A stretch of DNA of 64,000 nt from Giardia intestinalis (taxonomy: Eukaryota), in the NCBI GenBank assembly GCA_000002435.2, contig CM018793.1, one strand, 5' to 3'. Shown in pieces: positions 30,430 to 32,523 of this stretch. Under the pieces are notes generated by a model that saw only the letters and a list, made by a program, of their open reading frames with translations, made no database searches and was not told where the DNA came from. How positions within the stretch are numbered: position 1 is the stretch's first letter; the number at the start of each line of letters is the position of its first letter. The translations under genes were made by a program, and so were the position numbers.

Positions 30430-32047
30430 TCACGCCTTCCCCCTGCACACGAACCACCACAAGAAGCCCACGAGGCCCCCCACGACAGCGATGACAGCCA
30501 CGGAGATCCCTGCTATGGCACCAGTACTGAGGCCGCTCTTGTTGACGCTTCCGCCGGTGTTGTCGCCAGTGCCGTCGCCCATCACGAAGCACATGAACGC
30601 ACCGGTGGATGACACCGTGCACTGCCTGCACCCAGCGAGCCCCTCAGAGCACGGATTACACTTTGTCCCAGCACTCTGCGGTTTGTAATATCCAGTGCTG
30701 CATGTAGCACAGGCGTTAGCGTCGTTAGCAGCCGTGCATGTCTCGCAGCTAAGATGGCACCTTTTATTGGAACAATCGCCATTATCAGCCGTTAGACCAC
30801 TGGCACATTTTGTACATTTTCCTCCCTGCACTGTAGTACACACTTGCTTGCCAGGCTGTCTATCTGTCTGATAGCAACCGCCATCTTTGAGGAAGTAGTT
30901 ATTTTCACATTGAGTGCATGCTCCATTACTCACCGTAGTGCAAAATCGTGTTCGCGTATTGGCCGCACAGTTGCCATCCAGTGGTGCCTGTTGAGTGTTC
31001 TTGCACTTTGAGCAGTATGCAGTTCCTCCTATCTGAGCCCCACACTCTGCGCATCCATCGTTTGTAGAACTCACGCTGCACTGGTTCATGCACGTGCCCC
31101 CATTGGCAGGAGTATCAGCATCTGTATACTGAAGCATCCTCCCAGCAGGACAAGCCGTACACTTATCAGCGCCCTCACCCTTGCACTCTACGCACGCATC
31201 GTTGCACTTCTTGCACTTTCTGTCAGTGTCATTTCCGTAGTAGCCCTTGAGGGTCGTGCAGTCAGATACGCATTGACTGGTTGGGGTGAGGTAGTACTCA
31301 GACAGACACTTTGTACAGACCTCCTTATCGGCACCTTCACTGGTGCACTCCAAACAGTGCTCTGTGTTACAGTTACTGATTGGTTGGCATTCAGTCGATT
31401 CAGTATTAGGTTGGAGTCCTTCGTTGCACTCGCACACTTGGCTATCCTGTCCGGTGGCCTTGGGGGTAGAGTTAGCAGGGCAACTAGCAACGCACGACTT
31501 TCTGTTGAGACCAAAGATGGTCTTCGTATCAGTCGTACACGTCTTACAAACCACTCCGTTGGCGCCTTTCTCACAAGTGGTGCAGTCAGTTGTTCCAGCC
31601 GACACACATGTATTGCACTCCTTTGCTTCTTCATCAACGTAGTGGGTTGCCGGACAACCAGCTGTGTCAACGCACGTGCCGGTTGTGGACTCGCCATCCT
31701 TCTTCAGGTACTTCTTGGTCCCAGACGTTTTACACAGGCTGCACTTCTGTTGCTCCTTGGCCACGCACACAGCGCAATTATCATCTGCACACGCGGTGCA
31801 CTTCTTCTCGGTAGCGTCGATGAAGAAGCCCTCCTCATTAGTACACGCCTCTGCGCTAACACAGCTGGGTGCATCGCCAGCTTTAAAGTAGAATCCATCA
31901 ACACACTCCCCACATATATTGTCCACCACACAGCTCTTGCAATCACCCACAGAGCATGTCACACACCCACTACCACCCTTGTTGGGCTTCTTACCACTGT
32001 CACAGGCAGTACACACAGCGGCAGCCATACCAACTGTTGTTAGAGCT
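30430..32047 (-). repeat. constant 3' block, copy in U13 (offset +30559). Its 5' end is the chimeric junction.
   Basis: ORFs 30582..30782, 31188..31697, 31273..32043 are identical to the U0 copy up to ~32045. Confidence 0.85.
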
Positions 32048-32523
32048 GCAACTGTTAGTGCACTGGGGCTTACTGACAGTCGCATTGTACTTGCATGCCG
32101 TGCAATCAGTTATTGTACTACATGCCATGCACGTTCCAGACTCTGGATCAGCATACTTATCATTACCACAGCTATCAGTACATTGATTCCCATTGAGGTA
32201 CTTCCCCTCTGGACACGATGTGCACTGGGTCGCCGATGTCTCACAGGTGGCACAGTTCCCCTCGCATGGCTTACAAAGCTTGTTGTTTAGGAAGTACCCC
32301 TCTTGACAGGTATTACACGTGGCAGGTCCTGCATTCCCTGGTGCCGTACACTTGAGACAGTGGCCACTCCCGTATATCCATTCGCTCCCTTGATATCAGA
32401 GCACAAGATGCACTCCCCACCAGGAGTCACCTTGTCTGCCCTGTTCTGGAATATGTACTTGTTATCTGTCTTACAAGCAGTGCACAGTCCATTACTGGCC
32501 TTTGTACATATCACACTCCACAT
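30430..32523 (-). pseudogene. VSP-family unit U13. Chimeric: long-class constant 3' block fused to a U6-like 5' module across an internal deletion, plus a 1-bp deletion and a 3-bp in-frame deletion in the TM region.
   Basis: Tracker ORF 30430..32085 (551 aa) ends ...[12 protein letters not shown], lacking the conserved Cys (ccaccacaagaagccc versus ccaccagcagaggaagccc). Junction ~32046..32052: left of it the sequence matches U3 ~8410..8440, right of it U6 ~16148 onward. T lost at ~32358 (gagacagtggcc versus gagacagttggcc). The 5' edge has an in-frame ATG 32523..32521 (MWSVICTKASNGLCTACK). TAG 32529..32527. Confidence 0.75.

Follow-up and report, generated by a model that had tools for sequence, protein, structure and literature searches.

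A mosaic VSP pseudogene unit in a start-less array of Giardia intestinalis, with a junction between non-equivalent unit positions

Introduction

What kind of event produced the sole unit of intermediate length in a tandem array of VSP pseudogenes is the question raised by U13, a 2150-nt unit on contig CM018793.1 of Giardia intestinalis (GCA_000002435.2). The window, the stretch of 64,000 nt that was analysed, holds real sequence at positions 1-33,195 and N padding at 33196-64000. A first-pass annotation had described U13 as a deletion chimera of a long and a short unit, joined at a short microhomology within 32040-32060, with loss of the variable N-terminal half of the long unit and attachment of about 150 codons from the 5' end of the short one. 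Start-less vsp linear arrays of G. lamblia WB have been described (Adam et al., 2010; PMC2996952), a later annotation has them as psiVSP arrays (Xu et al., 2020; PMC7000408), and passages of both papers document recombination among their members. Here we find that U13 is a mosaic of two regions taken from non-equivalent positions of the array units, and we tentatively read this start-less, silent pseudogene as the product of one illegitimate deletion of ~0.95 kb inside a single long unit.

Results

U13 joins two non-equivalent regions

The contig consists of a single minus-strand, head-to-tail array of 15 start-less VSP pseudogene units, U0-U14, which were delimited by stop codons (U3, 6823-9939; U6, 14886-16680; U13, 30430-32579), and the unit numbering of the first-pass annotation was recovered from the stop-codon positions. 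Stop codons are spaced 1795-3133 nt apart and the units form a short class (1795-1935 nt) and a long class (3113-3133 nt), with U13 alone in between. The Pfam VSP family PF03302 matches the open reading frame (ORF) of U13 (E = 5.4e-66) as well as those of U6 (8e-39) and U3 (3e-82).

BLAST comparison with the contig aligns 30430-32048 with the long units U3 (6823-8444), U5 (11753-13374) and U8 (18487-20107) at 99.4% and with U0 (1-1489) at 99.7%, while 32046-32579 aligns with U6 16144-16680 at 98.1%, with 7 mismatches and 3 one-base gaps (Table 1). Exact k-mer matches to the long side end at 32048 and those to U6 start at 32054. BLAST, k-mers and a three-way alignment, which displays the switch directly, agree in placing it where the first-pass annotation had put it, and the parental strings named there are found in both parents, gctgtgcactgagagc in U3 and gttagtgcactgggg in U6. 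Beyond the switch point U0, U3, U5, U8 and the internal copy in U6 (to 15196) carry on as TCGGGGCTGTGCACTGAGAGC; because these five other copies run on, the break is private to U13 and is no shared module boundary. The sequence lost from U13, equivalent to U3 8445-~9400, occurs in every other long and short unit, so that its absence from U13 is a derived state.

In unit coordinates the equivalents of the two breakpoints lie ~950 nt apart. Switching at aligned positions, the hallmark of homologous gene conversion, is seen in the mosaic units U8 and U12 and not in U13, which presents both the abrupt switch between non-equivalent positions and the missing intervening sequence of an illegitimate deletion. 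With the missing region present in all other units, the earlier description of U13 as a deletion-derived unit whose halves come from non-equivalent positions and meet at few shared bases is borne out.

Two other schemes were considered and rejected. A module boundary of all units at 32048 was suggested by the ends of the BLAST matches to U4, U6 and U7, yet those units stay homologous beyond it and only U13 diverges. The converse polarity, in which the long units would have arisen by insertion from an ancestral state like U13, is at odds with a missing region that is common to short and long units and with a join that breaks the frame and a conserved CXXC motif.

A proposed interrupted microhomology at the junction

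On the plus strand the junction of U13 reads ...CCAACTGTTGTTAGAGCTG/CAACT/GTTAGTGCACTGGGGCTTACTG... (slashes mark the switch region), the long parent ...CCAGCTGTTGTTAGAGCTG/TCGGGGCTGTGCACTGAGAGC... and U6 ...CTTCTTACTG/CCACA/GTTAGTGCACTGGGGCTTACTG.... The motif gtgcactg (GTGCACTG) does stand near the join in both parents, as the first-pass annotation had noted, but the join is not made there: the switch bases are a CTG, and the 8-mer belongs to the U6-like side. From the CTG to the 8-mer there are 9 nt (CAACTGTTA), which agree with U6 (CCACAGTTA) at 7/9 positions and show no match to U3 (TCGGGGCT). Simple microhomology-mediated end joining (MMEJ) at the 8-mer was considered as well and rejected, the adjoining 9 nt on its left being U6-like and not U3-like.

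GTGCACTG is a frequent VSP motif, with 40 matches in 33 kb. For one 8-mer to occur within 20 nt of both breakpoints at a near-equal offset, P is nevertheless 0.005, and it falls to 6e-4 once the 3-nt overlap is taken into account as well, in a test that is conservative as its null set takes in homologous positions; on these two values rests the reading of the junction as an interrupted microhomology of the form CTG-N8/9-GTGCACTG. A local Smith-Waterman comparison around the breakpoints gave P = 0.07 and picked another register, GTTAGAGC / GTTAGTGC.

From this context, which appears to be non-random, we infer the following course of events. The interrupted microhomology (11 matching bases in ~20) would have aligned two breakpoints within the parent, most likely a long-class unit with a U6/U8-type head in the array's long slot, and the strands would have annealed around a small unmatched bubble that was later resolved to the head-side version, which is why the visible switch would lie at the CTG. 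Some 0.95 kb (~315 codons) would thereby have been lost from the middle of the ORF of the long parent. The join was probably made by MMEJ, single-strand annealing (SSA) or a replication template switch, since the classical form of non-homologous end joining (NHEJ) has been reported absent from Giardia (PMC11151923, PMC9042576), and a cluster of odd bases at the join may be the scar of an error-prone repair step.

Table 1. Features of U13 and of related units, in coordinates of the window
Feature	Position	Strand	Basis or remark
Unit U13	30430..32579	-	Stop codon 30430-32, spacer up to 32579; 2150 nt; Pfam VSP PF03302
Long-class block of U13	30430..32048	-	C-terminal ~540 codons, transmembrane segment, CRGKA
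U6/U8-type 5' head and spacer of U13	32049..32579	-	98.1% identical to U6 16147-16680, 89.6% to U8 21069-21599
Reference long-class block, U3	6823..8444	-	Homology runs on past 8444, unlike U13
Closest extant copy of U13 head, U6	16144..16680	-	98.1% identical over 32046-32579 of U13
U6 stretch (947 nt) with no U13 equivalent under internal deletion	15197..16143	-	U8 equivalent ~20108-21063
CTG (CAG in coding sense)	32046..32048		Only bases common to both parents at the switch
CAACT, ambiguous origin	32049..32053		U6-type CCACA with 2 substitutions, or templated filler from 32031-32035
GTGCACTG (gtgcactg; minus strand codes Q-C-T)	32058..32065	+	9-10 nt right of breakpoint in both parents (U3 8453, U6 16156)
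Three differences from long-class consensus	32021..32033	-	32021 G and 32025 C common to U10; 32033 A private
Direct repeat CAACTGTT, copy 1	32031..32038	+	Depends on U13-private bases
Direct repeat CAACTGTT, copy 2	32049..32056	+	Depends on U13-private bases
TGA ending head VSP frame	32000..32002	-	16 codons past the join
1-nt deletion, head frameshift (GGCCAACTG -> GGCCACTG)	32360..32361	-	Breaks the head frame in addition to the join
Longest U13 ATG ORF, 551 aa	30433..32085	-	First 13 codons are head in the wrong frame: MRLSVSPSALTVAALTTVGMAAAVC...
Private 3-nt deletion and 2 substitutions, transmembrane segment	30457..30462	-	FLCWWF -> FLWWF

Base changes around the join

Over the 1558 nt from 30463 to 32020 U13 has zero private differences from U0/U3/U5/U8. 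Five differences then fall within 32021-32058, namely the three from the long-class consensus (32021 G, 32025 C, 32033 A) together with 32050 A and 32053 T, both of which are unlike U6; the remainder of the head differs at a background rate of 1.5%, against which five in 38 nt at the join have P = 3.5e-4. The change at 32053 destroys a Cys codon that is kept in 8/8 other homologous sites compared. Three private bases also make an exact 8-nt repeat, CAACTGTT, which has just two plus-strand occurrences in the contig, 18 nt apart. Such a scar may reflect a short templated filler, mutagenic repair, or true parents that lie outside the contig; MMEJ tolerates mismatches, and insertions of 2-30 bp may reiterate adjacent sequence (PMC6635534).

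The repeat lends itself to a different account of the junction, in which no annealing at the CTG took place and a near-blunt joining of polymerase-theta type added a 5-nt filler, CAACT, copied from 32031-32035, 18 nt away, so that the U6-derived part begins only at 32054. From that position the identity with U6 is indeed exact, a single event would account for both U6 mismatches and the lost invariant Cys codon, and reiterating insertions of this size are documented in other systems. The same account nevertheless requires coincidences, in that the CTG of U6 stands exactly 5 nt before GTTAG and 3/5 of the filler bases equal those of U6, and it requires the private A at 32033 to be older than the event; we consider it improbable.

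At the other end of the long-class block, U13 alone has lost the Cys from FLCWWF, a transmembrane motif that is otherwise invariant.

One long unit or two neighbours

Along the contig the unit classes run L S S L S / L S S L S / L S S X S, in which X is U13, and the tail of U14 is of the short type. A long unit amounts to a short-type unit plus an extra 1348 nt (~450 codons), equivalent to U3 6941-8288, which lies between CGECVDG and the membrane-proximal region and is also found in U0, U5, U8, U10 and U13; the stretch equivalent to U3 8289-9939 is common to both classes. Around this insert a 1558-nt block has 3 differing sites among five copies, while the sequence 5' of the block is 75-95% identical, and the near-identity of the long-class block points to very recent gene conversion or possibly to an over-polished assembly. 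Between U0-U2 and U10-U12 the identity is 97.5% across 2.9 kb (2592-5471 and 26244-29114), which indicates a large segmental duplication inside the array.

Against this background the geometry of the deletion can be weighed. An internal deletion of ~0.95 kb and a 2769-nt (2.77-kb) fusion of two neighbours yield an identical junction. The fusion would have joined a U6-like short unit to the long unit on whose 5' side (minus strand) it lay, through a 2769-nt deletion or an unequal sister or homologue exchange at the same interrupted microhomology; lost with it would be three quarters of the short unit, from its 3' side, then the spacer, and half of the long unit, from its 5' side. All of the junction evidence applies to it equally, both halves of U13 match one adjacent pair, U6 16144-16680 and U5 11753-13374, at 98-99.7%, and the best match of the U13 head is by far the short U6 (98.5%, against 89.6% for the long U8). 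It implies, however, a prior order L S S L S S, the U14 tail being of the short type, in place of the L S S L S that is seen three times, and the flanks of U13 do not resemble a block copy of U7-U6-U5-U4, since U12 and U4 are ~69% identical and U14 and U7 are alike only in the universally conserved 135-nt tail. Heads, moreover, are exchangeable between the length classes (U8, long, against U6, short, 90.7%; U5, long, against U7, short, 94.9%), so that a U6-like head is no proof of a short parent. The description of U13 as a chimera of a long and a short unit in the first-pass annotation thus holds for a mosaic of unlike positions but a short parent is not required, as head types cross the classes and an internal deletion gives the same junction. 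A site that would discriminate between the two geometries was sought in 31893-32048 and none was found, the U6 copy (15041-15196) being identical to the long units. Because U13 in an L slot keeps the (L S S L S)x3 periodicity, which the fusion breaks, an internal deletion of a long unit is slightly favoured over a fusion of neighbours; the fusion is a possible but less likely origin of U13.

Several observations weigh against the internal deletion guided by interrupted microhomology. Among the extant long units none exceeds 90% identity to U13 in its head, and the 98% match of this head is to the short U6, directly upstream of a long unit as the fusion needs. The microhomology at the switch is only 3 nt, for which the probability of at least 3 shared bases is 0.06 with random U3 x U6 breakpoints, and the 8-nt microhomology 10 nt away, used alone, would give an in-frame product, its non-use being explained by the bubble model only. 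Simple annealing leaves the substitutions at 32050 and 32053 unexplained. The join, finally, lies 1147 nt from the contig end and rests on one assembly, and public protein sets lack the U13 ORF; they equally lack those of U5, U7, U9 and U10, which makes that absence uninformative.

Support for the join in the assembly

The position of the join, near the end of a contig made solely of near-identical repeats, raises the question of an artefact, in which a long read of chimeric make-up, or a template switch during amplification, found its way into a poorly covered contig end. The last ~1.2 kb has more differences and 1-nt gaps than the block on its left, the U13 ORF is in no public protein set, and should the window belong to the small WB contigs, these were, according to passages of PMC7000408, built from reads unmapped to the chromosomes. 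Repeat-driven mis-assembly, on the other hand, would be expected to join equivalent positions over long identity and not at 3 shared bases, and a read that became chimeric at random would seldom link two equally oriented pieces of one array at points that have an 8-mer in common at an equal offset. The divergence of the head from U6 consists mostly of substitutions at 1.5%, which is not raw-read error. U0, U4 and U6 are residue-for-residue identical to Sanger-era WB proteins: the ATG ORF of U6 (unit 14886-16680) is 100% identical to XP_001703933.1, that of U4 (unit 9940-11752) is exactly XP_001705783.1, and the 843 available residues of U0 (1-2973) are those of XP_001705785.1. These identities mark the strain as WB or one almost identical to it. 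The contig therefore appears generally accurate, and we infer that the join exists in the genome beyond this assembly, an artefact being rather unlikely. The homogenised interior of U13 and its diverged edges would also fit a unit old enough for gene conversion since the deletion.

Database searches were uninformative on this point. When ten unit ORFs were looked up in clusters by exact match, U4 alone was recovered, with U13 and most others absent; exact-protein look-ups for the U13 ORF, P0001, the U3 ORF, the U6 ORF and P0002 returned no record; and a metagenome scan with a 24-nt junction sequence gave 0 matches, as did the parental long-class control, so that the array is not represented in that collection. 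That the accession numbers XP 705783/4/5 (499, 427 and 887 aa) are consecutive suggests a collapse of U4...U0 into three genes in the assembly of 2007.

Reading frames and coding capacity

The VSP frame of the head (...CTACKYNATVSKPQCTN) crosses the join as SCSSNNSWYGCRCVYCL and ends 16 codons later, and the frame of the long block is closed by a TAA at 32110-32112 with its first ATG at 32085. The two halves of U13 are one base out of frame and the head carries a frameshift of its own, which, together with the 3-nt deletion in the transmembrane segment, means that no head-to-tail fusion protein arises from U13. The ~150 codons that the first-pass annotation had seen attached to the long block are accordingly present as DNA, although not in frame. 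With its halves out of frame, an extra head frameshift and a lost Cys codon, U13 is, to judge from its sequence, non-functional as a VSP. Passages of PMC2996952 regard the start-less vsp linear arrays as transcriptionally silent, a reservoir or graveyard, and for G. muris arrays a lack of transcription was measured (passages of PMC7641422); a frame-shifted U13 would be tolerated because the array is not expressed.

The join does give rise to the 551-aa ATG ORF (32085 to 30433), which raises the alternative of a selected innovation, in which the leader MRLSVSPSALTVAALTTVGMAAAV would act as a signal peptide and turn a silent cassette into an expressible VSP. This ORF keeps the whole long-class ectodomain, the transmembrane segment and CRGKA, and in its leader a basic residue precedes a stretch of moderate hydrophobicity. 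The maximal Kyte-Doolittle value (11-residue) of this accidental leader is 1.95, however, far under the 2.81 of the leader of a real VSP (P0002) and hardly over the 1.72 of the equivalent internal segment of U3. The ATG stands in the context CAATGCG, which lacks the vsp initiator PyAatgTT found at the start codon according to passages of PMC2996952, and upstream of it there are only the coding head and a spacer of ~50-70 nt, as in other silent members. A bona fide VSP, unlike a psiVSP, needs an N-terminal ATG and a signal peptide (passages of PMC7000408), whereas the ATG ORF of U13 begins in an out-of-frame head and has a weakly hydrophobic leader. Given also the private deletion in the transmembrane segment, we regard such an innovation as very improbable.

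The off-frame reading of the head (32085-32047, minus strand) places an ATG and a moderately hydrophobic 24-residue leader before the intact long-class ORF, and the start of the off-frame peptide, MRLSVSPSALTVA, is also found in U6, where it stops after 16 codons. P0002 (XP_001709621.2, 658 aa), which is listed on a WB contig of 2.76 Mb, represents a complete VSP and has the signal peptide MFEKIIFGIAILQVVWA. It carries the long-class C-terminal ~420 residues of the array, and this block is therefore common to a bona fide gene and the silent array.

Discussion

The array that contains U13 resembles the Giardia linear or psiVSP arrays described in passages of PMC2996952 and PMC7000408, and for G. 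muris of PMC7641422, in its one-strand head-to-tail arrangement with spacers of ~50-75 nt, in downstream members devoid of ATG, signal peptide and initiator that keep the CRGKA tail, and in its evidence of duplication and recombination. It differs in that the recombination reported in those passages was shown statistically and at equivalent positions; no breakpoint-resolved illegitimate deletion is described in the searched passages of these three papers. The array setting is thus already known, and a microhomology-guided deletion in a tandem array is an ordinary type of event. Specific to U13 are the resolution down to the breakpoint and the odd scar; the unit adds a case to the VSP-array recombination already known.

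Deletions made by MMEJ or SSA in NHEJ-less parasites, such as Trypanosoma brucei (Glover et al., 2008/2011, via passages of PMC5954013; PMC6635534), share with the U13 join the few shared junction bases, the mismatch tolerance and the possible templated insertion, and these parasites are, like Giardia, without NHEJ of the Ku/Lig4 type. The T. brucei junctions were obtained experimentally from defined breaks and their microhomology forms one block, whereas the pathway proposed for U13 is deduced from one natural scar and its microhomology is interrupted (3 + 8 nt). The mosaics of T. brucei VSG genes, as compared in passages of PMC7641422, likewise recombine segments drawn from surface-antigen pseudogenes that form a silent reservoir in arrays. 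They arise, however, by segmental gene conversion at homologous positions and are in frame and expressed, while the join in U13 is non-homologous and out of frame and shows nothing to suggest expression. Tandem arrays shaped by unequal exchange and concerted evolution likewise present homogenised copies, a higher-order repeat pattern and one variant-length unit; classical unequal crossing-over, on the other hand, uses long homology in a shifted register and gains or loses whole units, where in U13 only part of a unit is present and its join involves 3 bases.

Provided that the join is real, it amounts to a non-homologous rearrangement, resolved to its breakpoint, within a Giardia surface-antigen pseudogene array, such reservoirs are reshaped through illegitimate deletions besides homologous exchange, and the locus preserves one natural repair scar in an organism reported to be without classical end joining. 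A more specific claim would take the interrupted microhomology, the 8-nt direct repeat made across the join by three private bases and the lost conserved Cys codon as the natural trace of alternative end joining of an error-prone, synthesis-dependent kind in Giardia, which is considered to be NHEJ-less and to repair breaks through homologous recombination only; this claim appears unlikely. Were it true, alternative end joining would let silent VSP arrays diversify by illegitimate joins that give new unit lengths and frames, beyond homologous conversion, one such new frame being the U13 ATG ORF with its hydrophobic leader. The current picture of antigenic variation is unaltered by the U13 join. 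Its practical value is modest, as a spot for assembly checking and as a unique junction usable as a polymerase chain reaction marker of the array or haplotype in WB sublines.

Further features of the array

Both contig ends cut VSP units (U0 at the 3' end, U14 at the 5' end), so that the array extends beyond the sequence shown. All 14 complete tails end in CRGKA, preceded by V or I and placed after the transmembrane segment. Spacers are 50-75 nt long with stop codons in all three frames, and the unit ORFs open right past these stops, 15-24 codons beyond the preceding stop, with neither an ATG nor a signal peptide; in the ten units with intact frames (U0-U7, U9, U10) the first Met lies 84-283 codons inside the open frame, a spacing from which the units with broken frames deviate. 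Every spacer begins with CTTGGGTAGTGAATGC (for example 4837-4908, 16620-16680 and 32529-32579), which contains AGTGAAT, a motif that we take to be a polyadenylation-type signal of Giardia. After the spacer start, GTGATAG-like repeats put paired stops in all three frames before the ATG-less ORF.

Three further units have broken frames, U8 (18487-21599), U11 (26625-28553) and U12 (28554-30429), and U14 has a frame break near 32860-32940; the remaining ten are fully open despite having no start codon. U8 carries single-base deletions, among them one in a G run near 21280 (the equivalent of U13 32260) and one at the equivalent of 31038, and U12 is a mosaic whose 3' 915 nt are 94.8% identical to U9 and whose head is ~85% identical to U7. 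The GC content is ~0.56-0.57 in U9 (21600-23501), the 3' part of U12 (28554-29466) and U14 (32580-33195), against ~0.51 elsewhere, and outside the conserved tail these GC-rich segments are ~73% identical to other units.

In its other frames the long-class block shows long ORFs (171-256 codons) again and again, for example on the plus strand at 714-1484, 7669-8439, 12599-13369 and 31273-32043, and others are found in another frame of the minus strand (for example 632-1144). They recur because the long-class block itself repeats, and they look like by-products of biased composition and not genes.

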